Program-made: the position numbers and the translations under genes
Origin: an uncultured Elusimicrobia bacterium
GTDB taxonomy: Bacteria; Elusimicrobiota; Elusimicrobia; UBA1565; UBA9628
Direction: 5' to 3'
NCBI GenBank assembly: GCA_903874575.1
Contig: CAIQSZ010000370.1
Location: 1 to 38,552 of the forward strand
Length of the DNA: 38,552 bases
In this document: piece by piece, positions 16,148-38,552 of the stretch
How the letters are laid out: the number at the start of each line of letters is the position of its first letter
Numbering within the stretch: position 1 is the first letter of the stretch
Notes under the pieces: model-generated
Seen by the model: the letters and a program-made list of their open reading frames with translations, nothing else
Database searches by the model: none
Told to the model about the DNA's origin: nothing

Positions 16148-16171
16148 CGCGCGTCGGGTTCCTGCTGCGTC

Positions 16172-20198: not shown

Positions 20199-21106
20199 GC
20201 GAACGCATCGACCTTAAAGTGGGTTTTCGCTGCAACAACTACTGCACGTTCTGCGTCCAGGGCGACAAACGTCAGCGTCTGCCCTCCAAGCCCGAGGGCG
20301 AACTTTTCAAAGCGCTCGAGGAGGGCCGGCTTGAAGGCGCCGACGGCGTCGTTCTCACCGGCGGCGAGCCGACGCTTCATCCTAAGATCGTCGCCATCGC
20401 GGCCAAAGCCAAGAGCCTCGGCTATCGGACGATCCAGGTCCAGACCAACGGGCGGACCTTCTGCTACGGCGACCTTATCAAGCGCCTGGCCGACGCGGGC
20501 GTCAACGAGTTCGGTCCATCCCTGCATGGTTCCACGGCGAGGATACACGATTGGCTCACCGGCGCGCCGGGGGCCTTCCTTCAGACCGTCTCGGGCATGC
20601 GCAACATAAAGAAACACGGAATGCGCCTCATCACCAACTCCGTCATTACGAGAGCCAATTATCGAGATCTCCCTAATTTGGCGAAGCTTCTCGTGTCGCT
20701 CGGCGTCGATCAGTTTCAATTCGCGTTCATGCACATGACCGGGCGCGCCGGAGAGAACAAGAATTGGCTGACGGCGCGCATGGCGATCGCCGAGCCTTGG
20801 GTGAAAAAGGCTCTTGACGTCGGCATCGCCGCCGGCCGGACCGTCATGACCGAGGCTATTCCTTACTGCCGCATGTCCGGGTATGAGGACTATGTCGCCG
20901 AGAGGATCATTCCCCGCACCCGAATCTACGACGCCGACTGCGTCATCGCCGACTACACCAAGACCCGTTTGGACGAAGGGAAGGCTCGCGGACCGCTTTG
21001 TCCGAAATGCGATTGGAACGACCGTTGCGAGGGTCCGTGGCGGGAATATCCGGAACTTTTCGGTTGGGATGAATTCGTTCCGGTTTTGCGAACTGGGGGG
21101 GCTTAG
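20195..21106 (+). CDS. radical SAM enzyme, HxsC-like paralog 2
   Basis: CNNYCTFC, LTGGEPTL, QTNGRTF and C-terminal CPKCDWNDRC (CxxCx5C). Confidence 0.75.
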   Translation: MSERIDLKVGFRCNNYCTFCVQGDKRQRLPSKPEGELFKALEEGRLEGADGVVLTGGEPTLHPKIVAIAAKAKSLGYRTIQVQTNGRTFCYGDLIKRLADAGVNEFGPSLHGSTARIHDWLTGAPGAFLQTVSGMRNIKKHGMRLITNSVITRANYRDLPNLAKLLVSLGVDQFQFAFMHMTGRAGENKNWLTARMAIAEPWVKKALDVGIAAGRTVMTEAIPYCRMSGYEDYVAERIIPRTRIYDADCVIADYTKTRLDEGKARGPLCPKCDWNDRCEGPWREYPELFGWDEFVPVLRTGGA

Positions 21107-21116
21107 GCCAACGACT

Positions 21117-24404: not shown

Positions 24405-24872
24405 ATGGGCAAAGAAATCATTCCTAAAATCAAAAAAGACCTCACTCGGTTCTTGACGAGTGAAGAAGGTAAGATGCTCAAGAAGGACATCCTTAAGGCC
24501 GCAGCCATCCTGGGCATCGTCGGAGCGACCATGATGAAGGCGGAGGACGTCCTCGCTCAGACCCACACCAACGCCCTCCATAATTCGGGCGGACAGGCGT
24601 CGAGCCATGTGAGCCATAGTTCGCATGCCAGCCATGCTTCTCACGGCTCTCACGGCAGCCACGGTTCGCACGGCAGCCACGGTTCGCACGGCTCCCATGG
24701 CTCGCACGGAAGCCACGGCAGCCACGGGTCCCACGGCTCGCACGGATCCCATTCATCCCACGGCAGCCACGGCAGTCATGGGAGCCATGGCAGCCACGGC
24801 AGTCATGGCAGCCACGGCAGCCACGGCAGCCACGGCAGTCATGGGAGCCATGGCAGCCACGGGAGTTGGTAG
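24405..24872 (+). CDS. hxsA: His-Xaa-Ser repeat precursor protein (29 H-x-S triplets, 24 of them HGS)
   Basis: GAGG RBS 7 nt upstream of the ATG. A 67-aa N-terminal region contains the Sec-like hydrophobic segment KKDILKAAAILGIVGATMMKAEDVLAQ. Then HVS-HSS-HAS-HAS-(HGS)12-HSS-(HGS)12-W-stop. Confidence 0.85.
   Translation: MGKEIIPKIKKDLTRFLTSEEGKMLKKDILKAAAILGIVGATMMKAEDVLAQTHTNALHNSGGQASSHVSHSSHASHASHGSHGSHGSHGSHGSHGSHGSHGSHGSHGSHGSHGSHSSHGSHGSHGSHGSHGSHGSHGSHGSHGSHGSHGSHGSW
24606..24866 (+). repeat. coding tandem repeat, 9-nt period x 29 (CAY-GGN-TCN/AGY)
   Basis: Read directly from the sequence. The first 12 HGS units mix TCT/TCG/TCC/AGC Ser codons, while the last 12 use only AGC/AGT. The last 12 also contain an exact 36-nt duplication, units 1-4 equal to units 8-11 of that block. 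Confidence 0.95.
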
Positions 24873-26652
24873 CGGAGCAACGTCCGGAAGCAACTGGTCG
24901 AAGGCGCTGCTCAAGGTCGGCTACGCCTGCAATAATCGCTGTGTCTTCTGCCATTCGGAGTCGTTCCGGGTCATCCATCCCGAACTGACGACGCGGGACC
25001 TCCAGGCTCGGATACTGGAGGTCAAGGCGCGCGGCGTCGAGATGGTGGTTTTTTCCGGCGGCGAGCCGACGCTGCGTTCCGACATCTCTGAGTTGGCCCG
25101 TTTCGCGCATCAACAGGGGCTGAAAACCGGCTTTATCACGAACGGGCGTCGGTTCGCGTACCCCTCGTTCGTTCGGGATATGCGCGCCTGCGGGCTCCGC
25201 TTCGTTTATACGTCCTTCCATTCGCCCCTTCGTCGCGCTCATGAGTCGTCGAGCGGCGCCGACAGCCTCACGCAAGTCCTGGCCGCGTTGCGCCACTTGT
25301 CGCGTTCGGAAGTCGAACTGACCGTCAACACGGTCGTCACGCGCCATAACATCGGGAGCCTGTCGGAGGTCGTCGACCTTTTAGCCGCGTTCGCCCCCGC
25401 GAGGATTAAGTTCTCGGTCGTCGAGCCGAAGGGCGCGGCTCTCGAGAATCCGACGCTCTGTCCCCCGCTGAAGGAGAGCGCGGCGGCGATTTCGGACGCG
25501 ATCCGATATGGGGAATCAAGGCATCCGAACGTTCGCTTCGCTTGCGAAGGGCTGACGCCGTGCCTTATCGACGATTTCGACCGACTCAACGACGACCTGG
25601 TTTCGAACGGATTCGTGCTTTTTCAGGAGACGTTCGAGTCTCGTCCCGTCCGCCCCGATTACGGCAATCGCGCGAAAGCGGCGGCGTGTTGGGATTGCGC
25701 GCGGCACGATTCGTGCCCCGGCGTGTTTCAGGGCTATCTTTCCTCCGATCACGATCTCCCGATTCAGCCGCGGCCGAGCCGCATTTCCAATTCCTTCGTT
25801 TTCCTGCGCGGGGATCTCGCCGCCCCTCCGCGCGTCCCGGCGGAGTGCTCCTTGGAACGGGGCGACGTCCGCGGCATTTTCGTCGCCGAAGGGAATCGAC
25901 TGCGCTCGTATCGGACGCCCACGTCCGATTTTTCCGACGCCGAGATCGCGGAGACATTGCGTCTCGGCCAAGTGTATAAGACCCGCGGCGCGAAGCATAA
26001 GGGACTCGAGTATGGGCGCGACCTGGTCAAATACCGCGTCTCGCGGCTGTGCCGCTCGTGCGACCGTCGCGTCGGGTGCTCCCGCATCTACGAGAGGAGT
26101 CCGGGCAACGCCTTCGCTCCGTTGGAATCGGCGTTGGAGGACGTCGTGCGCGGCCTGCGCGGCGATATCCTGGAGGTCGGCTGCGGCAATATCCGGTTCC
26201 GAAGCGTACTCGAGGCCCTCGTTCGGGCGGGGCGCATGAGGTACGTCGGCATCGATCCGCATCTACCGCGGATGGCGGTTCCGCGCGGCATGTCGGTGCG
26301 CCGCGTCGATATCGAGGATTTCGACGCGGCCGCCGCCGCGTTCGATCATATCCTGATTTCGCGCAGCTACAACCATATCCGGCTTCCCTCCGTGGCTTTC
26401 CCGAAAATCCGACGATTATTGAGGGCGAAAGGCCGCTTGACCGTCGTCGACGGAGTTTCCTGCGGGATACTCCTGCCGCGTCGGCCTCCCGAGGCGTCCG
26501 CGTCGGAGTTCCAACACTATCGGAACCATTCGTCGGGGCAGGCTAAGGAGATGATCGCGTCGTTCGGCTTTTCCGCGGTCCGCGAGATCCCGGTCGATCC
26601 CGGCGGCGGCAGCGAGTGGCTGCTTTCCTTCCGCAAGAAGAGCCTCGAATGA
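24841..26652 (+). CDS. hxsC: radical SAM enzyme (HxsC-like, paralog 3) fused to a C-terminal class I SAM-dependent methyltransferase-like domain
   Basis: CNNRCVFC, FSGGEPTL, ITNGRRF and CWDCARHDSC (CxxCx5C). The C-terminal ~200 aa carry DILEVGCGNIRF, a motif I GxGxG-like sequence. No start codon exists after the hxsA stop. The candidate ATGs at 24841 and 24850 lie inside the hxsA repeat in the +1 frame, so the start is uncertain. Confidence 0.7.
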   Translation: MGAMAATGVGSGATSGSNWSKALLKVGYACNNRCVFCHSESFRVIHPELTTRDLQARILEVKARGVEMVVFSGGEPTLRSDISELARFAHQQGLKTGFITNGRRFAYPSFVRDMRACGLRFVYTSFHSPLRRAHESSSGADSLTQVLAALRHLSRSEVELTVNTVVTRHNIGSLSEVVDLLAAFAPARIKFSVVEPKGAALENPTLCPPLKESAAAISDAIRYGESRHPNVRFACEGLTPCLIDDFDRLNDDLVSNGFVLFQETFESRPVRPDYGNRAKAAACWDCARHDSCPGVFQGYLSSDHDLPIQPRPSRISNSFVFLRGDLAAPPRVPAECSLERGDVRGIFVAEGNRLRSYRTPTSDFSDAEIAETLRLGQVYKTRGAKHKGLEYGRDLVKYRVSRLCRSCDRRVGCSRIYERSPGNAFAPLESALEDVVRGLRGDILEVGCGNIRFRSVLEALVRAGRMRYVGIDPHLPRMAVPRGMSVRRVDIEDFDAAAAAFDHILISRSYNHIRLPSVAFPKIRRLLRAKGRLTVVDGVSCGILLPRRPPEASASEFQHYRNHSSGQAKEMIASFGFSAVREIPVDPGGGSEWLLSFRKKSLE

Positions 26653-28916
26653 CGAAAAGACGGCGCGTGCTGCTGGTGAATCCTCCGGCGCTCCTGGACC
26701 GGGATTTCATCGATTATCCTCAATTCGTCGGGTTGGGGGTCGCGTCGAACGCCGCGGCTCTGCGCGCGCGGGGGCTTGCCGTGACGGTGGCGGACGCCCA
26801 GATGTCGGCGCAGGCCGAGGTCGCGGCAAGGGACGACGGCCGAGTGCGGCTTGGCTGCGATCTGGAACGGCTTCTGAAGACCGTCCCCGGCGATTTCGAC
26901 GACGTCGTCGTCGGAGTGTCCCCCTACGCGAAGCCGCACGCGCGCACCGAATTCACCGCGCGGCAGTTCGCCGCGGCGCGCGCGCGCTTCCCTTCCGCGA
27001 GGCTGGTGGCGGCGGATTTCTATTTCGGCGGCATCCACTATATCGAGTACGACGGCGAACGGTTTTTGCGCGATTATCCCCAAGTGGACGCCGTGGTGAA
27101 ATATGAGGGCGAATCGGCGCTTGCCGCTCTTCTGAAGTCCTCCGGCCCGCTGCCGCGCGTGACGCGCGCGGTCGCGGAGGACATCCCGGTGGACTCCCTG
27201 CCTTATCCCGCTTGGGACCCGAAGTTCGTCGAAGGGCACGGAGACTTGTCGGCGAAGTTTTATGCCGCGAGCGGCCGTCCGGCGCCCTATCCGCCCGGCG
27301 TCGTGACCTTGCCCGCGGTGACTTCCCGGAGCTGCGCTTACCGCTGTTCCTTCTGCACCTCGAATCCGGGCCAGAGCCGAGCGTCGTTCCGGCCGCATGG
27401 GGCGGCTTACCTGCGGCGATATTTTTCCGAACTAAAAAATAAATTCTCCGTCCGACGCCTGGTCCTTCTTGACGGATGCGCCAATTACGATCCGGCGCGT
27501 TTCGACGAGATATTATCGATTATCGGAGAACTCGGCTTGCGCTGCGATTTCCCGAACGGGCTTCGAGCGGACAAATTGACTTTTGCGGCGCTCCGGGCGC
27601 TGAGCGCCGTCTCGGACGGCGTTTCCATCAGCGCGGAATCAGGCGATCCCGAGGTCCTTTCGCATATTTTTAAGAAAGGGATGGATCTTTCGGCCGTCGA
27701 GAGAGTCGCGTCCTGGTGCCGCGAGCTCCGGCTGCCTATAGGCATTCATTATATCGTCGGCGCTCCCGGGGAGACGCCGGAGAGCGTCAATCGGACCCTG
27801 CGCCACGCGTTGAGGATGACGGACGATTTCGGGGCCCGGCCGCTGCTGCAGAATTTCGTGCCTATTCCCGGCACGGCGCTTTATGGGGAGTGCGAGCGGC
27901 GGGGGCTTCTGAAGAGGTTCGACGCGGAGAATCTCCATCGATATTTTCAGGGAGAGCCGGCCCTGTCCACGCCCTCGCTGAGCCGGGCGAAGCTGTCGCG
28001 CATGGTCCGTCTGTTCCGGAGCAGGCTGGAGGCTTCGTCGCTGCAGAAAGTCATCGTCAACCTCACCTATCACTGCAACAACAACTGCCGGTTCTGCGCC
28101 GTCGGGGACCGGGGCAAGCGGCATGGGGACTTCGAGCGCTATGGGCGGCTTCTGGCCGACTATAGAAAGCGCGGAGTCACGGCTCTGGATTTGGACGGAG
28201 GCGAGCCGACGCTGTATCCGGAATTTTTTCCGCTCGTCCGCCTGGCGCGGCGATGCGGCTATGAGAAGATCACGGTCACGACCAACGGCCGGCGGCTCGC
28301 CGATCGCGCCTTCGCGGCTCGTTTTCTTCTCAGCGGCATCTCCGACCTGCTGATCTCCCTGCACGGGCATACGCCGGAGATCCACGAATATCAAACGAGA
28401 CGAAAGGGGAGCTTCGCCGAGGCCGTCCAGGGCCTCCGCCATGCGTTGAGGCTCAAGCCCGGCCGCATGACGGTGGGGGTCAATACCATGCTCCTCGCGG
28501 AGAACGCCCGGCATCTTCCGAGCTTCCTCGATTTCATGGATGAATTGGGGGTGGAGAAGGTGAACGTCCAACTGCTGACCCCCTTCGGCAACGCGGCGGC
28601 CGCGCCCGGTCGGGGCGATTTCGACGTCTACGGACATGCGGCTCGCGCGCTGCGGCGTCGGAAGAAGACGCCGGCCGTTCAACTCGTCAACGTCGTTCCC
28701 TGCCTGCTCGCGGGGCACGCGCGAGGCGTGCCGGCCGAACTCGGCAAGCATGGGCGGGAGATGGTGTTCGTGGACGCGGCTCCTCGCAATCTCGCCGCAT
28801 ACCTTGACGCTCGGAGGCATAAGACTGATCAATGTCGAGGCTGTGAATTTGATATCGGATGCGGCGGCTTCCATGTCTTCAACGCTGAAGAAGATCGAAC
28901 TGATCCTCTGGTTTAA
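26649..28916 (+). CDS. double radical SAM fusion: N-terminal class-B-like (B12-binding-like domain + rSAM) and C-terminal HxsC-like rSAM (paralog 4)
   Basis: The N-terminus RRVLLVNPPALLDRDFIDYPQFVGLGVASNAAALRARGLAVTVAD is B12-binding-domain-like. The first cluster motif is CAYRCSFC. The second half has CNNNCRFC, LDGGEPTL, TTNGRRL and CRGCEFDIGC (CxxCx5C). ATGA overlap with the upstream stop. Confidence 0.7.
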   Translation: MTKRRRVLLVNPPALLDRDFIDYPQFVGLGVASNAAALRARGLAVTVADAQMSAQAEVAARDDGRVRLGCDLERLLKTVPGDFDDVVVGVSPYAKPHARTEFTARQFAAARARFPSARLVAADFYFGGIHYIEYDGERFLRDYPQVDAVVKYEGESALAALLKSSGPLPRVTRAVAEDIPVDSLPYPAWDPKFVEGHGDLSAKFYAASGRPAPYPPGVVTLPAVTSRSCAYRCSFCTSNPGQSRASFRPHGAAYLRRYFSELKNKFSVRRLVLLDGCANYDPARFDEILSIIGELGLRCDFPNGLRADKLTFAALRALSAVSDGVSISAESGDPEVLSHIFKKGMDLSAVERVASWCRELRLPIGIHYIVGAPGETPESVNRTLRHALRMTDDFGARPLLQNFVPIPGTALYGECERRGLLKRFDAENLHRYFQGEPALSTPSLSRAKLSRMVRLFRSRLEASSLQKVIVNLTYHCNNNCRFCAVGDRGKRHGDFERYGRLLADYRKRGVTALDLDGGEPTLYPEFFPLVRLARRCGYEKITVTTNGRRLADRAFAARFLLSGISDLLISLHGHTPEIHEYQTRRKGSFAEAVQGLRHALRLKPGRMTVGVNTMLLAENARHLPSFLDFMDELGVEKVNVQLLTPFGNAAAAPGRGDFDVYGHAARALRRRKKTPAVQLVNVVPCLLAGHARGVPAELGKHGREMVFVDAAPRNLAAYLDARRHKTDQCRGCEFDIGCGGFHVFNAEEDRTDPLV

Positions 28917-29760
28917 ATGCAACTGCCGCTGCGCTTTCTGCGTCGTCGACGCGGAGACGGCGCGTCAGTCCATGACGACGGCCGAAGCCGTGCGTCACAT
29001 GGGGCGAGCCCGGAAGGAGGGCGCGAGCGCGGTGGATTTCGGCGGCGGGGAGCCGACGCTGCGCGACGACTTGGCCGCGCTCGTCCGGGCCGCCGCCGCG
29101 TTCGGGTATTCGGACATCGGCGTCAAGTCGAACGGATTGATGTTCTGCTATCCGGAATACGTCGAGACGTTGCGCCGCGCGGGGGCGGACCGTTTTTCCG
29201 TCTCCGTTTGGGGCGATTGCCCGTCCGTCCATGACGCGCTCTGCCGGACGCCGGGGGCCTTCGAGAAGATGGAGATGGGGATAAAAAACGTCGTCGATTC
29301 GGGGGGCGATCCTGAGGCCGAGGTTCTGCTGACCGTCGGGTCCGTCCCGCGGTTGGGGCGCATCGTGGGGGCGTTCGCGGACATCGGGGTGAAGCGGTTC
29401 CGGTTCTGGCTCTATTCGCTCTTCGGGGCGGATTCCCGTTTTCCGGAGCTTCTGCCGACGTTGACGGACGCGGGAGCGGCGATCTCGCGGACGTCCTCCT
29501 CCTTCGCATCCCGAGGACTGATTTTTTCGACGAGCCACGTCCCGCCCTGTTTTCTGCGCGCGCGGGGCGTCTACGCTCCCATTGCCGACGAAGGACTGCG
29601 CATCATCACGCCGGGCGGAGCGTTCGCCGCCGAGCGTTCGCCGTTCGAGGCCGGCGTCAAGACGCGGCGGTGCGCGGGATGCTCCCACGCCGACCGTTGC
29701 GGAGGGGTTCGTCACGAATATCTCCAGCGTTTCTCCGATGCCGAAATCACGCCGATCTGA
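28873..29760 (+). CDS. radical SAM enzyme, HxsC-like paralog 5
   Basis: CNCRCAFC, FGGGEPTL, KSNGLMF and CAGCSHADRC (CxxCx5C). The ATG at 28873 overlaps the previous gene by 44 nt. Confidence 0.7.
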   Translation: MSSTLKKIELILWFKCNCRCAFCVVDAETARQSMTTAEAVRHMGRARKEGASAVDFGGGEPTLRDDLAALVRAAAAFGYSDIGVKSNGLMFCYPEYVETLRRAGADRFSVSVWGDCPSVHDALCRTPGAFEKMEMGIKNVVDSGGDPEAEVLLTVGSVPRLGRIVGAFADIGVKRFRFWLYSLFGADSRFPELLPTLTDAGAAISRTSSSFASRGLIFSTSHVPPCFLRARGVYAPIADEGLRIITPGGAFAAERSPFEAGVKTRRCAGCSHADRCGGVRHEYLQRFSDAEITPI

Positions 29761-31156
29761 GGGGTTGCCGCCGGCGCAGGCGCGCGACTTTCAACGCTAT
29801 CTCGAAATGGCCCGCGGGCTTCCTTGGGAGGCCGAGCAGCTGCCGGCCTGCGAACTGCACGGCGCGCCGCTCTCCGGAGAGGCTGTCGGCGCGCTTTGGG
29901 CTCAGGCCGTCCGGGCGGGCTCTTTCGGGGGGGGCCTCGGCCTCTATTGCCACATTCCGTTCTGCGCGAGCCGTTGCGGCTATTGCCATTGCTTTTCCGA
30001 CGCCTTGAAGCGCCCGGATGAGTTAAGCGACCACCTCCGCCTGCTCTTGACGGAGATCTCTCTCTGGGGGCCGACGTTCGCCCGGAGCCGCTTCACCAAC
30101 GCCTACATCGGCGGCGGGACGCCCACGCTCCTGCCTCCGAAAGGCCTGGCGCTTCTATTGGGCGCGATACGAAGCGCCTTCCGTTTCACGGATGACGCTC
30201 AGATTACCGTCGAGTCCACGCCGAGGACCGCCGACGCGAACCGTTTGGCCGTCCTGCGCGCCCATGACGTCCGTCGCCTGAGTCTCGGCGTTCAATCCTT
30301 GGATCGCGCGGTGCTGGCCCGCGCGGATCGACAATGGCAGACCTTCGAGATGGTGGAACGCGCCTGCCTCAACGCCCGCCGGGCGGGGTTCCCCATCGTG
30401 AACGCCGACCTCATCGCGGGCCTTCACGGTCAATCCGTCGCCTCGCTCATCGCGGACGCGCAAGCGGTGGCTCGGCTGGGATTCGATACGATACACGTCT
30501 ACTACTTCGAACCGAACAAAGGCGCCTACGACGGCCGCGGTCGCCTCGGCGCCGCCTGGCGACGGCGCCGTCAGGCCATGCTGGCGGCGGTCGGTCCCGC
30601 CCTGGCTCCTTACGGCTACCGGGCCATCTTCGGCGAGACGATCTACGCGTTGCGCGAGGGGGCGGAGAACCGCTACGATTTCGAACGGTACTTCCGAGCG
30701 GGTTCGATCCTCGGTCTGGGATGGCAGGCTGAATCCCATGCTTTCCCGGGAACCAACTACAGACATCTTTCGAGGCAATCGTGGCAGGAAAGCCTTCGGG
30801 CCGGTCGCATGCCGCCCGTGCGGTCGTACCGGGGCGGACCGGACTGGGAAATGCGGGAGTTTCTCGTCTTCCGTCTGCGCCAAGGGGTCGATTATGGCGT
30901 TTTCCGGAGACTTTTCGGCTGTCGGCCTCAGGACGCGTTTCCGGCCGCCTTCCGCGCCCTCCGGCGGGCCGGCCGCCTTCGCGAGCGGACCGGCTTCGTT
31001 CAGGCGGTGTTCGGCTCACAGTTGGAGTATCTGGCCGTCACTTTGCATTTTTTCCCCGAAGAATCTCTTTTGAGGGCATTGTCGATGCGCCCATCGGTCC
31101 AGACGGATGGAGGGCGAGAGTCGCCCGTGCGTCGCGGCTCGCGCCCGGAGGCGTAG
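29738..31156 (+). CDS. HemN-like (class C) radical SAM enzyme
   Basis: YCHIPFCASRCGYCHC (CX3CX2C followed by an extra Cys), YIGGGTPTLL, SLGVQS and a HemN_C-like tail. The start is uncertain: ATG at 29738 or 29810. Confidence 0.75.
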   Translation: MPKSRRSEGLPPAQARDFQRYLEMARGLPWEAEQLPACELHGAPLSGEAVGALWAQAVRAGSFGGGLGLYCHIPFCASRCGYCHCFSDALKRPDELSDHLRLLLTEISLWGPTFARSRFTNAYIGGGTPTLLPPKGLALLLGAIRSAFRFTDDAQITVESTPRTADANRLAVLRAHDVRRLSLGVQSLDRAVLARADRQWQTFEMVERACLNARRAGFPIVNADLIAGLHGQSVASLIADAQAVARLGFDTIHVYYFEPNKGAYDGRGRLGAAWRRRRQAMLAAVGPALAPYGYRAIFGETIYALREGAENRYDFERYFRAGSILGLGWQAESHAFPGTNYRHLSRQSWQESLRAGRMPPVRSYRGGPDWEMREFLVFRLRQGVDYGVFRRLFGCRPQDAFPAAFRALRRAGRLRERTGFVQAVFGSQLEYLAVTLHFFPEESLLRALSMRPSVQTDGGRESPVRRGSRPEA

Positions 31157-31157
31157 C

Positions 31158-32300
31158 GTGACCTCCGTCAAAGGAAGCCCGGAAATATATCTCGACAATG
31201 CCGCCACCACGCCGCTGCGCCCGGCCGCGTTGCGCGCGATGATGGATTGCTCCCGGCGTTTCTACGGCAATCCCTCCTCGTGGCATCGCAAGGGCGTCGA
31301 GGCGTCTCGGGCCGTGGAGAAAAGCCGCCGAATCCTCGCGCTGGCTCTGGGTTGCGAGCCGGACGAGATCGTCTTCACTTCCGGGGGTACGGAAGCCAAT
31401 AATCTCGCCGTCAAAGGGGTGGCGCGGGCTTTAGGGAGGCGCCGGGCCCACGCCGTCGTCTCGGCCGTCGAGCATCCCAGCGTGGCGGCCGCCGTCCAGT
31501 CGCTGAAGGCGCGGGGCTGGTCGATCACCGTCGTGAAGACGGACGAAGATGGGATGGTCGCGCCCCGCCGCGTCGCCGAGGCGCTGACCTCCTCCACCGC
31601 TTTGGTCAGCGTCATGCACGCCAACCATGAGATCGGGACGATCGAGCCCATCGCCGAGATCGGCCGCCTCTGTCGACGGGCCGGAGTCCTCTTTCACAGC
31701 GACGCCTGCCAAAGCTTCATGAAGGAGCCGCTGGATTTGAGACGGGTTGCGGTGGATTTGGTCAGCGTCAACGCCCACAAACTCCATGGACCAAAGGGCG
31801 TCGGCGCCTTGGTCGCGCGCCGAGGATCGTCTCTGGCGCCGCTCCTGGACGGGGGCGGACAGGAAGGCGGACGTCGTTCCGGGACCCACAATACCCCCGC
31901 CATCGCGGGGTTCGCCGCCGCCGTGGAGGACTCCGACCCCGGGGCGCCCGAGAAGATGCGGCGTCTGCGTGACAGGCTCTTTGCGGCGCTCGTTCGGACG
32001 ATACCGGGGCTGAGCCTTAATGGGCCGCGTCATGGCCGCCTCTGCAGCCATCTGAATCTGCTGCTGCCGGGGCTCCAGGCCAAGCCCTTCCTCCAAAAAC
32101 TCAGCGCCGCGGGGATATACGCTTCCGCCGGAGCGGCCTGTTCCTCAGCCAAGACCACTCCTAGTCCCGTGCTGCTCGCCATTGGAAGGACTCCCGAGCA
32201 GGCGTCGTGCAGCGTGCGCTTGAGTTTGAGCCGCTCGACCACTCCGTCCCAGATCGACGCGGCGGCTCGGACGATGGCGTCGCTCGCCCGCGGCCTATGA
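31158..32300 (+). CDS. cysteine desulfurase (NifS/IscS-like, class V aminotransferase)
   Basis: IYLDNAATTP, TSGGTEANN, PLP-lysine context SVNAHKLHGPKGVGAL, RSGTHN and active-site loop SAGAACSS. A GTG start at 31158 lies 1 nt after the upstream stop. The ATG at 31107 would overlap by 50 nt. Confidence 0.8.
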   Translation: MTSVKGSPEIYLDNAATTPLRPAALRAMMDCSRRFYGNPSSWHRKGVEASRAVEKSRRILALALGCEPDEIVFTSGGTEANNLAVKGVARALGRRRAHAVVSAVEHPSVAAAVQSLKARGWSITVVKTDEDGMVAPRRVAEALTSSTALVSVMHANHEIGTIEPIAEIGRLCRRAGVLFHSDACQSFMKEPLDLRRVAVDLVSVNAHKLHGPKGVGALVARRGSSLAPLLDGGGQEGGRRSGTHNTPAIAGFAAAVEDSDPGAPEKMRRLRDRLFAALVRTIPGLSLNGPRHGRLCSHLNLLLPGLQAKPFLQKLSAAGIYASAGAACSSAKTTPSPVLLAIGRTPEQASCSVRLSLSRSTTPSQIDAAARTMASLARGL

Positions 32301-32536
32301 CCGAATCCGAAGAGACCCTTGATCTTCGCGGCGTTCCTTGTCCAGCCAACGCGGCTCGGGCGCTGATGGCGCTCGAGGGGTGCGAGGCCGGAGACCTGCT
32401 GAGGCTACTGCTGGACGACGGCGAGCCCATCGAGAACGTGCCTCCCTCGCTGGAGGAGCAGGGCCATGCCGTGGTCGGGAAATCCTGGCGGGGAGGGGCG
32501 TGGGAACTGTCGGTGAGGGCGGGAGGTCCATCCTGA
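32297..32536 (+). CDS. TusA/SirA-like sulfurtransferase
   Basis: LDLRGVPCPANA matches the DxRGxxCPxP persulfide-carrier motif. About 79 aa. ATGA overlap with the cysteine desulfurase gene. Confidence 0.75.
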   Translation: MTESEETLDLRGVPCPANAARALMALEGCEAGDLLRLLLDDGEPIENVPPSLEEQGHAVVGKSWRGGAWELSVRAGGPS

Positions 32537-33558
32537 TGGAAACGAGGCTGTGCGGCCGATGCGTTCTTCCCGAGTCCGCGCCGGACATCCATCTGGATTC
32601 GCAGGGGGTTTGCAACCTCTGCCGCGATCACGAGAAGCGCCGTCCGGAGGCGGGGGCTTCGCGTCTTTTGGAATCGGACTTCACGAAGATCATTGAGAAG
32701 CACCGCGGACGGCATGAGTTCGATTGTCTCGTGATGTGCAGCGGCGGCAAGGACAGCACGGCGGCTCTCTATTACGCCAAGCGTCGCTATAAACTCAATG
32801 TCCTGGCATTTACCTTCGACCATGGATTCGAGACGGAGGAAGCCCTCGACAACGTCCGCCGCGCCGTCGAGACGCTCGACGCGACGTTTCTGACCTACCG
32901 GTCGACCTTCATGCGCGACATGTTCGCCAGACTTTTGAAGTCGGGCTCTCCCGCGGTCATCTGCCACGTCTGCGCGATCTGGTACATGGGCCTGACCTAT
33001 CGGATGGCCGAGCGCTTCGACGTCCCCCTGATCATCGCCGGCTGGACCAAGGGGCAGATGACCTCTCAGCCGGTCCTGACCAAGTGCGCCTGCAACCTGG
33101 CGGCGCCCGAATACGCTCGGATGGGACGGGCGACGAAGGACTTTCTCGCCGGACTGAAGGACGACCCCAAGTACAAGGATTTCCCGGGGAGCATCGAGGA
33201 GGTCGTCGCTCGGGCTCAGAAGCGCCATAAATCGCTCGTCCTTTCTCCCCACTGGTTCCTGCCCTACTCCGCCGACGAATACGTCCCCGTCATCGAGAAG
33301 GAACTGGGCTGGCGCCAGCCGCGCCTCAGCTATCCGGCCAAGACCACGAATTGCGCCCTCAATTTCATCTCGGTGCAATGGGCGTTGAAGCACTACGGCT
33401 ACACGCATTACCATGTGGAGATGAGCAAGCTTATCCGCGAGGGTTTGCTGACCCGCGAGGAGGCGCTGGAGCAGTTGCGCGCCGACTTCGACCCCGAATT
33501 GCTCAACCGCATCGCGGGGCCCCTGGGGTTCCGGTTCCCGGATCGGACGGGCGCATGA
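32536..33558 (+). CDS. PP-loop ATP pyrophosphatase family protein (N-acetyl-sugar amidotransferase / WbuX-PseA-like architecture)
   Basis: N-terminal zinc ribbon CGRCVLPES...GVCNLC, PP-loop VMCSGGKDST and a conserved CHVC. TGATG overlap with the tusA-like gene. Confidence 0.7.
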   Translation: METRLCGRCVLPESAPDIHLDSQGVCNLCRDHEKRRPEAGASRLLESDFTKIIEKHRGRHEFDCLVMCSGGKDSTAALYYAKRRYKLNVLAFTFDHGFETEEALDNVRRAVETLDATFLTYRSTFMRDMFARLLKSGSPAVICHVCAIWYMGLTYRMAERFDVPLIIAGWTKGQMTSQPVLTKCACNLAAPEYARMGRATKDFLAGLKDDPKYKDFPGSIEEVVARAQKRHKSLVLSPHWFLPYSADEYVPVIEKELGWRQPRLSYPAKTTNCALNFISVQWALKHYGYTHYHVEMSKLIREGLLTREEALEQLRADFDPELLNRIAGPLGFRFPDRTGA

Positions 33559-33716
33559 AGAAGCTCGTCTTGATCCTGCGCGAGGCCTTCCATTTGGTCC
33601 GGCGGCATAAGTTTTATTTTCTTCTCCCGATATTTCTCGTGCTCGCCGCCCTGGCGTTCCTGGCTTATGAGATCGGGCCGGCCGTCGTCGTCTCCTTCAT
33701 CTACGCGGGACTATGA
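33555..33716 (+). CDS. DUF5989-like small membrane protein
   Basis: The 53-aa MKKLVLILREAFHLVRRHKFYFLLPIFLVLAALAFLAYEIGPAVVVSFIYAGL fits the pattern I recall for this family: a basic stretch, then LLPI..VL...., ending FIY..L. That family usually neighbours carbamoyltransferases. ATGA overlaps on both sides. Confidence 0.6.
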   Translation: MKKLVLILREAFHLVRRHKFYFLLPIFLVLAALAFLAYEIGPAVVVSFIYAGL

Positions 33717-35404
33717 CTTCCCGAGTTCTCGGCCTTTCCTGCCACTACCACGACTCGGCGGCTTGTCTGATGGAGGCGGGCGGCATCGTCGCCGCGGCTC
33801 AAGAGGAACGCTTCCTCCGTAGGAAGAACGCTTCGGGGTTTCCTCTGCACGCGCTCAACTACTGCCTCCAGGCGGGGGCAATCACCGTCTTGGACCTCGA
33901 CGCGGTCGCGTTCTACGAGAAGCCGTTTCTGAAGTTGGCCCGCGTTCTCGAAAGCCACCTGGACTCCTGGCCCCGATCATTCGGTTCTTTCCGGCGGACC
34001 ATGGCGCACTGGCTGGACGATCGTCTGACCCTGCCGCTGTCGTTGAAGTCGCGACTCGGCTTCTCCGGCCGGACGTTTTTCGTCAAGCACCACCTGGCCC
34101 ACGCGGCCTCTGCCTTCTACCCGTCCGGCTTCGAGGAGGCTGCGGTCCTCACCGTCGACGGCGTCGGCGAGTGGGCGACCGTGACCAGGGGGCACGGCGC
34201 GGGCAATCGTCTGCGCATCGATTCCGAGATGCGCTTTCCTTCCTCGCTCGGGCTTCTCTATTCGGCCGTGACGAGTTATCTCGGATTCGAAGTCCATGAA
34301 GGAGAGGGAACGGTGATGGGCTTGGCCGCCTATGGCAGCCCCGTTTTCCTGGATCGTTTGCGGGGGATCGTCCCGTCGACGCCCGACGGCGGATTCATGC
34401 TCGATCGCGGCTGGTTCGATTTCAGCGGGGATGGGAAGATGTATACGCCGCGCTTCGTCGAGGCTTTCGGTCCCGAGCGCGTTCCCGGAGGCCCTCTGGG
34501 GGAGCGTCACTGCGATATGGCGGCCAGCCTGCAGAGCCTCACGGAGGAAATTCTCCTGCGTTTGACCCAAGGCCTGCGCGCGCAAACCAAGTGCGAGTCC
34601 CTCTGTCTGGCGGGCGGGGTAGCCCTCAATTGCGTGGCCAACCAGAAAATTCTCGACTCGTCCGGATTCAAGAAGGTCTTCGTCCAGCCCGCGGCGGGCG
34701 ACGCGGGCGGCTCCCTAGGAGCGGCCGCTTTCGTCAGTCACGCCTTGTGGGGTCATCCGCGGCCGGCTCGGATGAGTCCCTACCTCGGGCCGGACTGCAG
34801 CGCGTCTCGGATCAGAAGGGTTCTGACCAACGCCGGGCTGGACTTCCGCGAATTATCGGAAAAAGAGTTATGCCGAGAAACGGCCGCCAGGCTGGCGCGG
34901 GGTAAAGTGGTAGGCTGGATGCAGGGCCGCATGGAATTCGGTCCGCGGGCTTTGGGCAACCGTTCGATTCTCGGCGACCCGCGCCATCCGAGGATGAAGG
35001 AAATAATCAACGAGCGGGTAAAGCGACGGGAGGAATTCCGTCCCTATGCGCCCGCGGTGCTCGCGGAGGCAGCGAGAGACTTCTTCGAGCTCGAGGGAGA
35101 CAGCCCCTTCATGCTTTTCGCGCCTCGCATCCGCGAGGAGAAAAAATCCGTTCTTCCCGCCGTCGCCCATCCCGACGGTTCGGCGCGCGTGCAGACCGTG
35201 CGCGAGGCGGACAACCCCAGGTTCCATCGCCTGATCGCTTCGTTCGGAGAACTGACCGGCGTTCCCGTGGTCGTCAATACCTCGTTCAACCGCAGGGGCG
35301 AACCGATGGTCTGCGCCGCGGAGGAGGCCGTCGCCGTTTTTAAGGAGAGCCGGATGGACTGCCTCGCCGTCGGCGACTTCTTCGTGGAGCGCGATGGGAA
35401 TTAA
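33713..35404 (+). CDS. carbamoyltransferase (NodU/CmcH family)
   Basis: N-terminus VLGLSCHYHDSAACL...AAQEERFLRRKN, VKHHLAHAASAFY, LCLAGGVALNC, and C-terminal domain motifs GRMEFGPRALGNRSILGDPR, RPYAP and VNTSFN. Confidence 0.85.
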   Translation: MTSRVLGLSCHYHDSAACLMEAGGIVAAAQEERFLRRKNASGFPLHALNYCLQAGAITVLDLDAVAFYEKPFLKLARVLESHLDSWPRSFGSFRRTMAHWLDDRLTLPLSLKSRLGFSGRTFFVKHHLAHAASAFYPSGFEEAAVLTVDGVGEWATVTRGHGAGNRLRIDSEMRFPSSLGLLYSAVTSYLGFEVHEGEGTVMGLAAYGSPVFLDRLRGIVPSTPDGGFMLDRGWFDFSGDGKMYTPRFVEAFGPERVPGGPLGERHCDMAASLQSLTEEILLRLTQGLRAQTKCESLCLAGGVALNCVANQKILDSSGFKKVFVQPAAGDAGGSLGAAAFVSHALWGHPRPARMSPYLGPDCSASRIRRVLTNAGLDFRELSEKELCRETAARLARGKVVGWMQGRMEFGPRALGNRSILGDPRHPRMKEIINERVKRREEFRPYAPAVLAEAARDFFELEGDSPFMLFAPRIREEKKSVLPAVAHPDGSARVQTVREADNPRFHRLIASFGELTGVPVVVNTSFNRRGEPMVCAAEEAVAVFKESRMDCLAVGDFFVERDGN

Positions 35405-35627
35405 GGCGGCCCTGGCGCGCGCGGCGCAGCGCTCAGCCGACGTCATGCGTTCCGCCCTGCTTTCGGCGGGGCTCTTCGTCGTGTATTTTCTCGGGATGGG
35501 GCTGACGCGCGCGCTGGCGGTACTGTTCGGCGGGCGGACGCGCGCGTCCAGCTTTCGCGAGGATCCGGCTTGGCGCCCCGCCGAGGGGTATGACTCCGAC
35601 GAGGAATCCTGCCTCAGGCAGTCCTAA
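35394..35627 (+). CDS. small membrane protein, hypothetical (possibly SxtJ-like companion of the carbamoyltransferase)
   Basis: The 77-aa ORF overlaps the carbamoyltransferase end by 11 nt and has one hydrophobic stretch, LLSAGLFVVYFLGMGLTRALAVLFG. Family assignment is weak. Confidence 0.4.
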   Translation: MGIKAALARAAQRSADVMRSALLSAGLFVVYFLGMGLTRALAVLFGGRTRASSFREDPAWRPAEGYDSDEESCLRQS

Positions 35628-35640
35628 GTCTTCGCGGCTT

Positions 35641-37011
35641 TCAGCGTGCTGCCGGCCGGAGGTCCGCTTTAAGAATTTGCTTGGAGAGATTTCCCACCAG
35701 CAACTTGACGCCCTTGGGGCTGAGATGCCCGAAGTCTCCGCCGTACTGGTCGGCGAACAATTCCGTGAACGGCGTCTTGCGCAGGGCCTTCTTGAACGGC
35801 GCCTCGTTATCGACGAAACGGATCCCTTCCAGTCCGACGAGGGATTTTTTCAGCATGGAGACCCGCCGGACCGGATATTGCATCCAGAACAACGGCAGTT
35901 TTCGAGACAGAATCTTCTGCGCCGTCTCCCGGTTATGGTCCGGGTTGGAGGAGTCGGCGACGAGCGCTTCCAATAATTCGTCCGCTTTATCAAAATAAAG
36001 CCGGGCTTGCGCCTCGTCGCCGCGGGACAGGGCGAGGATGGCGTAGCAGCGCAGCAGGCGGTCGTCGGGAACATAGCCCGACCGTAAATGAGGATGGAGA
36101 CTGCCGGCGCCGACTTGATCGCCATCCTCCAGGTAGAGATAAGAAAGGGAAGCGAAATCGTCCCAGTCGGCGCCGGGCATAGCCACCGCTTTCTGCATCA
36201 GTCGTCGCGCTTCATCGTGGTTGCGGTGGGTGTAATGGGTCCAATAGGCGGCTTTCAGAAGTCTCCGGTCCTCGGGATATTCCCGCATCCCTCGATTTAG
36301 GAGGTCCAGGGCGGTTTCGGCGTCGGAACGTTCGAGCGCTTGCGCCGCCCGCCGCAGGTAGAACAGCGGCCCGTGCTCGGCGCCGCCCGCCGCTTTCTTG
36401 AGGAGTTCAGTGGCCTTGCGGTAGTCTCTGCCGATGAAGTAGTGAATGCCGGCGTCGGCGTCGTTTGCCCGCCAATCAGCGCTTTGCGAGTCCGCTCCGA
36501 GGTCCTGTTTCTGCCGAAGCTGTTCCGCCGCCGTCGCCGCCAGCCTCGCGGTCCGAGATTTCCACCACCAATACCGCTGCGGGCTTTTTCGGTAAAAGCC
36601 GGCGTCGGCGCCGATCATCACGATGACAGCGTCCGGATGGTAGGCGTTTAGATTTTCGTCCACGTGCGCGGCGATGAAAAGGGAGCCGATCCCCGGACGG
36701 CTGCGATCGATGATCCGATAATGGACGCGGCGGTCGAGGCGGTTGAGTTCGTCCTCCAGTTGTGCGGGATAGCCTCCGATGAACGTCATCGAGTCTCCGA
36801 GGCACAAGATTCGGACTTCGTCGGCGGGGGCGGCGCCGGTCGCGGCCCTCCCCCGGAGCAGGGTTCCGAGCGTACTGGAAATCCAAAGGGTCGACTCGAG
36901 GAGAATCGCCGCAACGACCGCCCCGAGCAGGGCGGCGGCGATCTTCTGCTGGGCGGAGGACATTCTTGGAGAGGGAGTTCCGTTCGAACCCGGGATAGAG
37001 CTTGGTTCCAT
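35641..37011 (-). CDS. SGNH/GDSL hydrolase-like protein interrupted by a TPR-like helical region
   Basis: N-terminal TM, then the ILCLGDSMT GDS block. A central helical repeat region contains RDYRKATELLKKA and HDEARRLMQKAV. The C-terminal GGDFGHLSPKG resembles the SGNH block V D-x-x-H. An alternative start lies at 36963. Confidence 0.55.
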   Translation of the reverse strand: MEPSSIPGSNGTPSPRMSSAQQKIAAALLGAVVAAILLESTLWISSTLGTLLRGRAATGAAPADEVRILCLGDSMTFIGGYPAQLEDELNRLDRRVHYRIIDRSRPGIGSLFIAAHVDENLNAYHPDAVIVMIGADAGFYRKSPQRYWWWKSRTARLAATAAEQLRQKQDLGADSQSADWRANDADAGIHYFIGRDYRKATELLKKAAGGAEHGPLFYLRRAAQALERSDAETALDLLNRGMREYPEDRRLLKAAYWTHYTHRNHDEARRLMQKAVAMPGADWDDFASLSYLYLEDGDQVGAGSLHPHLRSGYVPDDRLLRCYAILALSRGDEAQARLYFDKADELLEALVADSSNPDHNRETAQKILSRKLPLFWMQYPVRRVSMLKKSLVGLEGIRFVDNEAPFKKALRKTPFTELFADQYGGDFGHLSPKGVKLLVGNLSKQILKADLRPAAR

Positions 37012-37092
37012 GTGCCTGGGTGTATACTACCAACGAAGTAGCGCCGAGAAAATGTATAACCCTCTGCGATAGGACGGTTTAACGGGCTAATT

Positions 37093-37752
37093 ATGAGATC
37101 ACGGGCGCTTTCACGATGGGCGCGGCGGGCGTGGTTGTTATGGACGGGCGTTCTGGCGGCGGCCTCGAGCGGACCTCCCGGGCGCAGGCCTGAGGCTCAG
37201 AGTAGCCCGCGGCTTTCGCGCCACGAAATTTGCGTGGCTGTAGCTCAGGGCGACCCTGCGGGATGTCGTCATCTTCCTCACTATCCGGGGAGGTCCGGCG
37301 ACTGCCTGCTGTTTTTGAGCCTCAAACTCGCGGCGAAAGGAGACACGCGCGCCTGCGATATAAATACGACGGCGTTCGACCGCCTGTTCTGCGCGATGAT
37401 CGCCGGCGGCGGACTGAGGTGCGGCGACTTGCGCGCGTCGGCCGCGGCCCACGACGCGGCAAGGAGCCATTTCGATCCGGCCGAGAGGCTCATTCGAGCG
37501 TGCGAGCGTCTCGATTCCGAGCGCATCGCCGAATGTCGGGCTTCCGTCCGGTCCGGCGTGGTGTCCGATGAATGCTTGATAGCGCTCAATCTCCTCGCTT
37601 ATCAAAAGCGTGATATAGGCCTTTGCGCCGGGCTCCCCGATCTCCGCTCGCGGGAAAATTGCCGCGTTATGCTGGGGGGAGGCGTCGACGCTTGCTCTCG
37701 GAGCGTTGATTTCGAACACATCGATCCGCCATGGTGGGTCAAGAAAAGATGA
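37093..37752 (+). CDS. secreted Cys-rich hypothetical protein
   Basis: Signal-like N-terminus RRAWLLWTGVLAAASS. About 14 Cys in recurring D/R-x(2-4)-C contexts (GDPAGC, GDTRAC, RDIGLC, SRENC, GVDAC), resembling the 21117..22289 protein. Confidence 0.5.
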   Translation: MRSRALSRWARRAWLLWTGVLAAASSGPPGRRPEAQSSPRLSRHEICVAVAQGDPAGCRHLPHYPGRSGDCLLFLSLKLAAKGDTRACDINTTAFDRLFCAMIAGGGLRCGDLRASAAAHDAARSHFDPAERLIRACERLDSERIAECRASVRSGVVSDECLIALNLLAYQKRDIGLCAGLPDLRSRENCRVMLGGGVDACSRSVDFEHIDPPWWVKKR

Positions 37753-38552
37753 CTTGTCCGGGGGAGCGGCACAACAGGAGCGGCTTCGCGCCCGACGTCA
37801 TCCGGTTCATGCTCATCGCGGGCGTTTCACTGGCGCTCGTCCTGGTCTTTTTCGCCGCGCGCGCATACCGGCATCCGACCGGCATTGTGATTCTCGAGGG
37901 AGATTGGACGAGGGAATTGGATAGGGAGATCGGGTTCGTTCCCGTGAAGAACGGCTCTTCGCGAATGCGAAACCTCTTTGCCGGCCTCAGCTATGACATA
38001 TTCACGGACGACCGGGGGGGGCGAGTCAACTCTCCGGGGCTTAAAGCTCCCGGACGAGTCGACCTTCTGACGCTGGGATGCTCTTTTGCGTGGGGACAGG
38101 GCGTCGATAACCGCAACACCTACACCGAGAGGCTGGGAAGACGCCTGGGGCTCGCGGTGGAGAACTTGGCGGTGCCCGAATACGGCACCGTGCAGTCGCT
38201 TTTAATGCTTGAGCGGAACGCGGCGCTTAAGCCGCGGGTGGTGGTCTACGGGATCATCGAGGACCACCTGAGACGGAACTTGTCTCCGTGCGTCGAAGAC
38301 TTCTATGCCCGGCGTTGCGTCCCTGTCCCGTATGTGGCGCTCGGCGGCGGCGAGGATGTGTTCCTGCACGAAGCGGAGCCGGAACGCGTCTCGATGGAGG
38401 AAATCCGAAAGTACTACCGGGAAAGCCTGGTCGAAACCTATCCCAGCCTGAATAGCGCTCTCTGGCAGATTCGCCGGGATTATAACGCCGTCGTGAACGG
38501 GCTGAGGCATCGATACAAGAACGACGTCGAGACCAGGTCGAAGTCCATCGAC
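37749..38552 (+). CDS. membrane-anchored SGNH-hydrolase-like protein, 3'-truncated by the window end
   Basis: An open frame runs from the ATG at 37749 (ATGA overlap with the upstream stop) to the window end with no stop; I translated it by hand. TM segment FMLIAGVSLALVLVFFAA. The LLTLGCSFAWGQGV block resembles SGNH block I, with Cys-Ser in place of Asp-Ser. Confidence 0.5.
   Translation, partial: MTCPGERHNRSGFAPDVIRFMLIAGVSLALVLVFFAARAYRHPTGIVILEGDWTRELDREIGFVPVKNGSSRMRNLFAGLSYDIFTDDRGGRVNSPGLKAPGRVDLLTLGCSFAWGQGVDNRNTYTERLGRRLGLAVENLAVPEYGTVQSLLMLERNAALKPRVVVYGIIEDHLRRNLSPCVEDFYARRCVPVPYVALGGGEDVFLHEAEPERVSMEEIRKYYRESLVETYPSLNSALWQIRRDYNAVVNGLRHRYKNDVETRSKSID

Follow-up and report, generated by a model that had tools for sequence, protein, structure and literature searches.

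The subject of this analysis is a gene cluster on a 38,552-nucleotide (nt) stretch of DNA from an uncultured Elusimicrobia bacterium (contig CAIQSZ010000370.1; hereafter the window, with a G+C content of 64%). At 31158–33558, three plus-strand genes encode a cysteine desulfurase, a TusA-like sulfur carrier and a PP-loop ATPase, which an earlier interpretation made from the letters alone (the sequence-only reading) had described as overlap-joined and as attached to an Hxs operon. We read the junctions directly from the sequence and found the overlaps as described: the desulfurase and TusA genes share ATGA at 32297–32300 (stop TGA at 32298–32300, start ATG at 32297–32299), and the TusA and PP-loop genes share TGATG at 32534–32538 (stop TGA at 32534–32536, start ATG at 32536–32538). 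The chain runs past 33558 through three genes absent from that reading, encoding a DUF5989 protein, a carbamoyltransferase and a 77-amino-acid (aa) membrane protein. The PP-loop stop and DUF5989 start meet in ATGA at 33555–33558, the DUF5989 stop and carbamoyltransferase start in ATGA at 33713–33716, and the carbamoyltransferase gene overlaps the open reading frame (ORF) of the 77-aa protein, which starts at 35394, by 11 nt. In all, the chain comprises six consecutive plus-strand genes with overlaps of 1–11 nt. The GTG start of the desulfurase gene at 31158 is one base after the TAG stop (31154–31156) of an upstream gene for a HemN-like radical S-adenosylmethionine (SAM) protein; an alternative ATG start at 31107 has been chosen by gene callers for the same contig elsewhere. 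A promoter and terminator scan of 28000–38552 gave an uninformative result. The genes are as follows:

31158–32300, plus strand: type I (NifS/IscS-like) pyridoxal phosphate (PLP) cysteine desulfurase, 380 aa (397 aa from ATG 31107), from Aminotran_5, the NifS model and motifs

32297–32536, plus strand: TusA-like sulfur carrier, 79 aa, from Pfam TusA

32536–33558, plus strand: zinc-ribbon and PP-loop ATP pyrophosphatase, 340 aa, at the centre of the conserved module, from the WbuX model, fold and cysteines

33555–33716, plus strand: DUF5989 small membrane protein, 53 aa, with ATGA overlaps on both sides, from Pfam and synteny

33713–35404, plus strand: TobZ/NovN/NodU-type O-carbamoyltransferase, 563 aa, from Pfam and PDB matches

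35394–35627, plus strand: 77-aa single-pass membrane protein of an undescribed family, from ORF clustering across loci

35641–37011, minus strand: membrane-anchored GDSL/SGNH hydrolase with TPR repeats, 456 aa, convergent and a looser member of the module, from weak Pfam matches and synteny

We searched the related loci with the window proteins, grouped their full set of ORFs into clusters in an assumption-free way, and counted synteny in 49 non-redundant genome loci whose flanks extend at least 4 kb to either side of the PP-loop gene; these counts include related genomes, and the loci are not independent events. The PP-loop gene occurs with the carbamoyl set in 38 of the 49 loci and with TusA or the desulfurase in 31: both the sulfur genes and the carbamoyl set are present in 22, only the carbamoyl set in 16, only sulfur genes in nine, and neither in two. 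TusA is encoded directly upstream of the PP-loop gene in 30 loci, and a desulfurase homolog immediately precedes this pair in 21. On the carbamoyl side, the carbamoyltransferase is found in 36 loci, DUF5989 in 34, the 77-aa family in 35 and the GDSL/TPR protein in 22. Gene order varies among loci, with the genes remaining adjacent and mostly co-directional. All six module genes stand in a row in one locus (L091); in a second, Pfam-annotated contig (L086), the GDSL/TPR, carbamoyltransferase, DUF5989 and 80-aa genes are divergent from those for the desulfurase, TusA and the PP-loop protein; and a Falkowbacteria contig (L003) carries DUF5989, TusA, the PP-loop gene and the carbamoyltransferase. 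Sporadic neighbours include genes for family-2 glycosyltransferases, NAD-dependent sugar epimerases/dehydratases, AsnB-like amidotransferases and TPR proteins, which points to a possible role in envelope glycan or glycolipid metabolism. An NMT1-type binding protein with an ABC transporter neighbours the trio in L001 and L003 but was dropped as a candidate partner because it is not conserved, and for the loci with sulfur genes only, no replacement partner was found beyond lineage-level synteny. In another locus (L085), an 818-aa fusion of CoA-disulfide-reductase (pyridine-nucleotide disulfide reductase), rhodanese, TusA and DrsE-like domains is encoded at 7517–9973, immediately upstream of the PP-loop homolog; downstream of that homolog lie NadA and a 486-aa class-V aminotransferase.

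Among curated models, the PP-loop protein is best matched by the WbuX N-acetyl sugar amidotransferase (NASAT; TIGR03573), over its full length and with 163.9 bits, which misses the cutoff of 203.2. Matches to QueC and ThiI are weak and confined to the PP-loop region, TtcA and TtuA models are not among its NCBIfam or Pfam matches (E <= 0.01), and TtuA in the PDB matches it by sequence only at an E of about 0.7–0.8. The AlphaFold model, with a predicted local distance difference test score (pLDDT) of 86.5 and a predicted template modelling score (pTM) of 0.86, is confident except at residues 38–43 and 171–185. Its top Foldseek match is the Legionella NASAT 8wex (TM 0.61 at 16% identity), and TtuA, asparagine and carbapenam synthetases and [4Fe-4S]-LarE come next; argininosuccinate synthetase and the PP-loop nitrile synthetase ArtA are also among the fold matches. 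The protein has more than 1000 homologs, at 55–82% identity across many phyla, and the best 120, at 59–82%, go under varying names (QueC, TilS or hypothetical); the family is routinely mis-annotated as QueC or TilS. In a collection of 185,579 species with one genome per species, we found 182 relatives and kept 80, all of them metagenome-assembled genomes (MAGs), from Elusimicrobia, Omnitrophota, Planctomycetota, Bacteroidales, Desulfobacterota-type bacteria, Bdellovibrionales and Patescibacteria, with one archaeal (Thermoplasmatota) MAG. A profile search of 1.84 billion cluster representatives returned 385 clusters at E <= 1e-30; the strict family falls into one 50%-identity cluster, and the next tier holds many domains embedded in proteins of the size of nonribosomal peptide synthetases (NRPS).

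Conservation of individual residues was assessed in alignments of 30 homologs (A1) and of 84 distinct sequences. The zinc-ribbon cysteines C6, C9, C26 and C29 are kept, together with G24, in 84/84 sequences and fit CXXCXn[GN]XCXXC, the zinc-binding tetracysteine motif of NASATs (PMC10607449). The PP-loop S69-G-G-K-D-S74 (SGGxDS) is invariant, with K72 in 83/84. Together with the fold match to 8wex, these residues bear out the NASAT-like zinc-ribbon and SGGKDS architecture recognised in the sequence-only reading. The protein carries further cysteines: a triad C143, C146 and C273 (CxxC...C), present in all 84 sequences; C68, directly before the PP-loop, in 80; and a pair, C184 (77/84) and C186 (76/84), at the low-confidence loop predicted for residues 171–185. 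Canonical NASATs (plasmid-derived), which are 23–24% identical to the PP-loop protein, lack C143, C146, C184, C186 and C273. Across the 150 best 50%-identity cluster representatives, the triad is kept in nearly all, and C68, C184 and C186 are found in the strict family only.

The triad partly resembles the iron-sulfur ligands of sulfur-inserting PP-loop enzymes. In hhalign comparisons, C143 and C146 fall on C122 and C125 of E. coli TtcA (probability 83.6%), which are, with C222, the experimentally supported [4Fe-4S] ligands of that enzyme (PMC4081106). The spacing from C146 to C273 is 127 residues, the same as from C157 to C284 in CtaC, the closthioamide thioamide synthetase, which was compared by its published residue numbers and primer-derived peptides only. 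CtaC carries out an ATP- and sulfide-dependent O-to-S exchange with C154, C157 and C284 as Fe-S ligands (PMC6772006). Like the enzyme proposed here, CtaC belongs to the adenine-nucleotide alpha-hydrolases, with sites for Zn, ATP and [4Fe-4S] and a non-nucleic-acid amide substrate; it differs in that its substrate is a carrier-protein-tethered peptide and its cluster has no sulfur-mobilising enzyme, whereas the present module includes a dedicated desulfurase and TusA but neither a carrier protein nor an NRPS.

The C184/C186 pair is associated with TusA. Where both cysteines are present, TusA is nearby in 52 loci and absent in 14; where either is missing, TusA is found in 1 case, in which the PP-loop protein is a second paralog, and absent in 7 (Fisher p = 4e-4, uncorrected for phylogeny). 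Some loci have two PP-loop paralogs (L005, 3708–4847, minus strand; L069, 8505–10564; L077; L079); the second tends to lack C184/C186, and the L005 copy also lacks C68.

The desulfurase gene product belongs to the class-V aminotransferase fold (Pfam Aminotran_5, 231 bits), contains in its translation an HK motif with the PLP lysine and a GAACSS motif for the catalytic Cys loop, and is matched by PDB cysteine desulfurases at an E of 1e-86. Its best NCBIfam model, NifS, scores 379 bits against a cutoff of 530.75, and the other equivalog models also stay below their cutoffs (DndA 316 against 480; IscS 296–300 against 643). Judged by fold and motifs, the enzyme is type I and an equivalog of no named desulfurase. 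DNA phosphorothioation of the Dnd/Ssp kind was considered and rejected: only the desulfurase matches SspA/DndA models, and the PP-loop and other module genes have no PADLOC match. The TusA-like carrier matches Pfam TusA (PF01206) with 59.1 bits against a gathering cutoff of 28.6 and has the family motif LDLxGvpCPxN, with C-P-x-N instead of C-P-x-P. Its cysteine aligns with Cys19 of E. coli TusA in practically all family members.

The carbamoyltransferase has the Kae1-like Carbam_trans_N (227.4 bits) and YrdC-like Carbam_trans_C (240.5 bits) Pfam domains, both above cutoff, and is matched over its full length by NovN and TobZ in the PDB (E 1e-99); the HypF model matches it weakly. DUF5989 scores 26.6 bits, just under the Pfam cutoff of 27, and also adjoins carbamoyltransferase relatives that lack a PP-loop gene. 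The protein at 35641–37011 has weak Pfam Lipase_GDSL_2 and TPR matches, with homologs in L086 and beside carbamoyltransferase relatives. We reversed the search, starting from the carbamoyltransferase: of 80 metagenome loci fetched, 78 had a family-profile match, and a PP-loop gene was nearby in eight of the nine most similar loci (50–59% identity) and in 9/78 overall. Relatives at 42–49% mostly keep the 77-aa family, DUF5989 and the GDSL/TPR gene and lack the PP-loop, TusA and desulfurase genes. Because of this reverse test, we regard the carbamoyltransferase and small membrane proteins as the wider base module and the sulfur trio as an add-on in one subclade. The 77-aa family (about 75 aa; for example L042, 6116–6337, and L005, 8208–8444) likewise accompanies DUF5989 and TobZ-type carbamoyltransferases in loci without a PP-loop gene. 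Y31 and W60 are invariant in it, its C-terminus is nearly always ...RQS (tail pattern W..A.GY......RQS-COOH), and no Pfam model, SxtJ for example, matches it; this fixed Gln-Ser end suggests that the tail has a function, as a carrier or as a recognition site.

The module resembles SxtI-SxtJ-SxtK-type sets (an O-carbamoyltransferase with small proteins) in placing its TobZ/NodU-family O-carbamoyltransferase beside two small membrane proteins, one of them the approximately 53-aa DUF5989 protein; it differs in having no sxt genes and a 77-aa family without a Pfam match. In saxitoxin clusters, SxtK is of DUF5989-like size, and SxtJ/K homologs lie beside carbamoyltransferases; DUF5989 is at most a candidate counterpart of SxtK, and the 77-aa family of SxtJ.

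Taken together, we propose that the PP-loop protein is an iron-sulfur, ATP-dependent O-to-S exchange enzyme that draws on a sulfur relay of its own and is an addition to a broader carbamoylation module, and we put the probability of this reading at roughly 55%. The NifS-like desulfurase would transfer persulfide sulfur from cysteine to the conserved Cys of the TusA-like carrier, which would hand it over to the PP-loop enzyme, with the C184/C186 pair on the flexible loop as the probable acceptor; from there it would reach the free iron of a putative [4Fe-4S] cluster whose ligands would be C143, C146 and C273. Turning ATP into AMP and pyrophosphate, the PP-loop site would adenylate a substrate carbonyl at its oxygen, and the activated sulfur would displace O-AMP to leave a C=S group, in a chemistry of the TtcA/TtuA/CtaC type on an N-acetyl-sugar amidotransferase scaffold. 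The sequence-only reading had likewise invoked a desulfurase-to-TusA-to-adenylating-enzyme logic on a NASAT-type scaffold served by a sulfur relay instead of an ammonia supply, and both ideas are strengthened by the adjacency of TusA (30/49) and the desulfurase (21/49) and by an invariant triad missing from canonical NASATs.

Precedents exist for such a pairing. In the IscS-TusA-MnmA route, a persulfide relay serves a PP-loop enzyme that converts C=O to C=S (PMC6225789), and YcfA-YcfC, which acts in 6-thioguanine formation, is reported to pair a PP-loop ATPase with a dedicated PLP sulfur-mobilising enzyme, YcfC, for the same conversion (PMC12494993). In both, as in our proposal, a PP-loop ATPase is served by a dedicated PLP sulfur enzyme or an IscS-TusA relay. 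The differences are that these enzymes belong to other PP-loop subfamilies, act on guanine nucleotides or tRNA uridine, and are not known to be linked to a carbamoyltransferase or membrane proteins.

As to the substrate, the O-carbamoyltransferase, the two small membrane proteins and the SGNH/TPR protein would form a base module that carbamoylates a hydroxyl, most likely on a membrane-proximal or envelope molecule and probably on a glycan or glycolipid. Because of the operonic coupling to a TobZ-type O-carbamoyltransferase, the carbamoylated molecule is the most likely substrate of the PP-loop enzyme, and since the sulfur half appears as an add-on to the carbamoyl base module, both halves most likely share the same target. 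Sulfur could enter at the new carbamoyl carbonyl, giving a thiocarbamate, or at a neighbouring N-acyl carbonyl, giving a thioamide at the position that NASATs attack. A more specific version is that a glycan or glycolipid hydroxyl is O-carbamoylated, the carbamoyl oxygen adenylated and TusA-derived sulfur swapped in to yield an O-thiocarbamoyl (thionocarbamate) group, a thiocarbonyl modification not yet known in biology; this is a tentative idea with the odds clearly against it. Argininosuccinate synthetase, a PP-loop enzyme that adenylates the ureido oxygen of citrulline, offers an analogy for attack on a carbamoyl oxygen. Searches of the available literature on DUF5989, on TusA with carbamoyltransferase and PP-loop, and on thiocarbamate biosynthesis returned no description of the module.

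Several observations weigh against the proposed exchange enzyme and its coupling to carbamoylation. The nearest relatives in sequence and fold, the NASATs, transfer nitrogen, not sulfur. C273 could not be aligned to TtcA C222 by hhalign, and the local sequence around the cysteines differs from that of CtaC, as judged by the primer-derived peptides. In 16/49 loci, the carbamoyl set is present with no sulfur gene in reach, and 11/49 lack the carbamoyl set, and because of these loci neither coupling is obligatory. In this genome, the module is translationally packed against Hxs/radical-SAM genes, with a 1-nt gap. The O-to-S role of the family is deduced from sequence and synteny.

Among the other explanations, a divergent TtcA/TtuA/ThiI analogue that thiolates tRNA or a nucleoside and is fed by TusA fares best, and we consider it unlikely. 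Thiolation of tRNA classically runs from IscS through TusA to a PP-loop enzyme (PMC6225789), the order of zinc finger, PP-loop and CxxC...C parallels TtuA and TtcA, and TtuA, with its N-terminal zinc finger, is the second-best fold class. Even so, the protein matches no TtcA or TtuA model, its nearest fold is a NASAT rather than TtuA, and TtuA takes its sulfur from the TtuB thiocarboxylate rather than from TusA. Gene context and distribution also differ from those of TtcA/TtuA/Ncs6: the family is rare and patchy (182 relatives in 185,579 species, the 80 kept being all MAGs) and is operonic with membrane proteins and an O-carbamoyltransferase. Its closest outgroups, moreover, sit as domains inside NRPS megasynthases, whose substrates are small molecules.

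It is very unlikely that the PP-loop protein is an ordinary NASAT (WbuX/WbpG/PseA) that makes an acetamidino sugar from ammonia, with the sulfur genes beside it by coincidence. The two share the N-terminal zinc ribbon with its tetracysteine motif, the SGGxDS PP-loop, the overall fold (8wex being the best match), a full-length match to WbuX as best sequence model and, presumably, a first step in which an amide-type carbonyl oxygen is adenylated, and glycan genes occur sporadically nearby. They are set apart by the subthreshold WbuX score, by an identity of 16–24% (23–24% to the canonical NASATs), and by the cysteines: NASATs lack the invariant triad and C184/C186. NASATs have HisH/HisF2 as partners, and the canonical L088 adjoins genes for both; the PP-loop protein here has TusA, adjacent in 30/49 loci, and a desulfurase, so that the predicted incoming atom is sulfur rather than nitrogen. 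No HisH/HisF2-type (WbuY/WbuZ) genes are found in the operon or the window, a statement that holds for the window only, as the related loci had no systematic HisH/HisF screen.

We give similarly little credence to the view that the trio is an Hxs accessory that thiolates the Hxs product (an HxsA-type peptide) or another upstream radical-SAM product. The case for it is local. The region upstream encodes, on the same strand, HxsB (530.9 bits, exceeding its cutoff), an HxsD-like protein just below its cutoff and nine radical-SAM domains in all, the desulfurase starts 1 nt after the last radical-SAM gene, and the arrangement of Hxs genes and module recurs on two other contigs of the same organism, and only there. 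In an Elusimicrobia MAG (RIFOXYA12_FULL_57_11; L019), a PP-loop homolog also lies about 3–9 kb from radical-SAM genes with 46–54% identity to two of those in the window. Set against this, tblastn of the Hxs/radical-SAM proteins of the window against 84 related loci gave no match to HxsD or to the 20883–22289 product and a single HxsB-like match (1/84), weak and at 27% identity, and the three closest PP-loop relatives (L001 79%, L091 78% and L005 77%) carry the module without hxs genes or a radical-SAM cluster. The L019 locus has neither TusA nor a desulfurase, and the 20883–22289 product, considered below, lacks both His-Xaa-Ser repeats and an HxsA model match.

Because the arrangement is limited to the same organism, with partial resemblance in L019, and the closest relatives lack hxs genes, the adjacency is a lineage-specific juxtaposition, and the module is independent of Hxs genes. 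The claim that the trio is attached to an Hxs operon is therefore not upheld; comparison with related genomes, which had been suggested as its check, showed hxs genes to be missing beside the module in the closest relatives and practically all other loci. The sequence-only reading had itself named, as an outcome that would refute it, conservation apart from hxs genes and next to lipopolysaccharide or glycan loci, and our findings essentially agree with that outcome: the constant partner is the O-carbamoyltransferase set, with glycosyltransferase and sugar epimerase genes as sporadic neighbours. The module may nevertheless have a lineage-specific extra role in this genome.

A scheme modelled on HypF and HypE, in which the TusA thiol or persulfide or the 77-aa tail would be carbamoylated and the PP-loop enzyme would then carry out an ATP-dependent dehydration that yields a (thio)cyanate, in the manner of QueC-type nitrile synthetases and HypE, appears more improbable still. 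The Kae1-like and YrdC-like build that the carbamoyltransferase shares with HypF, the presence of ArtA among the fold matches and the invariant C-terminal QS of the 77-aa family would suit it. The scheme is wholly by analogy, however; the base carbamoyl module is widespread where PP-loop and TusA genes are missing, small molecules are the substrates of the TobZ-type O-carbamoyltransferases, and the Cys triad points to sulfide activation, not dehydration.

Least credible is a role of the desulfurase and TusA in merely supplying Fe-S assembly for the approximately nine radical-SAM domains, with the PP-loop gene as a passenger, an option that the sequence-only reading had left standing: NifS is indeed the top NCBIfam model of the desulfurase and many Fe-S-dependent enzymes are encoded directly upstream, but the NifS and IscS equivalog cutoffs are missed, no NifU/IscU/SufBCD-type scaffold was found in the operon, and the desulfurase-TusA pair tracks the PP-loop gene, not the radical-SAM genes, including in loci that have none of the latter. 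TusA is a persulfide relay protein and is not known as a component of ISC or NIF cluster assembly, which also counts against this option.

Outside tRNA, only a handful of systems for enzymatic O-to-S exchange are known, namely CtaC, YcfA, LarE and YcaO/TfuA. The PP-loop family is highly conserved, at 55–82% identity over at least eight phyla, nearly all uncultured, and the identity of its substrate would give a function to four families (the PP-loop protein, DUF5989, the 77-aa family and GDSL/TPR) and could expose a new thiocarbonyl modification of envelope molecules. The thionocarbamate idea, if true, would add a new, phylogenetically widespread sulfur-inserting branch of PP-loop enzymes (in Elusimicrobia, Omnitrophota, Planctomycetota, bacteria of the candidate phyla radiation and others). 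For Hxs research, the trio should not be counted in the Hxs system.

Beyond the strict family, the nearest outgroups are domains in NRPS-size proteins: P0152 (573–910 of 912 aa), P0156 (1533–1871 of 1875), P0159, P0162, P0181, P0189 and P0224 (3038–3360 of 5376). They keep the zinc ribbon, the PP-loop and a CxxC...TNC form of the Cys triad, which makes them candidates for in-line sulfur-inserting (thioamide-forming) tailoring domains. A more distant homolog (27–30% identity) that keeps the Cys triad is encoded on a plasmid of B. thuringiensis HD1002 (NZ_CP009349.1; L089, 6004–6975), with an acyl carrier protein gene on one side and genes for adenylate-forming enzymes, carrier proteins, a ketosynthase and a thioesterase on the other; its annotation as a 7-cyano-7-deazaguanine synthase is probably wrong.

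The Hxs cluster of the window is itself atypical in lacking a clear equivalog of HxsA or HxsC. Ahead of the HxsD-like gene, at the place where HxsA might be expected, lies a 468-aa ORF (20883–22289, plus strand) whose product starts from a signal-anchor-like segment, is Cys-rich in the middle and ends in a coiled tail rich in Lys and Glu; beyond the HxsA model, it has no other family match either. A second stretch belongs to the same observation on the atypical cluster:

17249–18043, plus strand: listed with the 20883–22289 ORF

Two large fusion proteins are encoded within the radical-SAM block, one joining a radical-SAM domain to a C-terminal class-I methyltransferase domain (24625–26652, plus strand) and one with two radical-SAM stretches, whose N-terminal half resembles B12-binding radical-SAM enzymes (26616–28916, plus strand). 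In L019 (5532–8006 / 9445–16554 region), a carbamoyltransferase of the ornithine carbamoyltransferase (OTCase) family and an M20 peptidase intervene between the PP-loop gene and the radical-SAM genes, which ties the PP-loop gene, in this locus only, to a second, unrelated (aspartate/ornithine) carbamoyltransferase family. As a general partner the OTCase-family enzyme was rejected: distant copies occur in L012 and L014 only and are possibly housekeeping genes.

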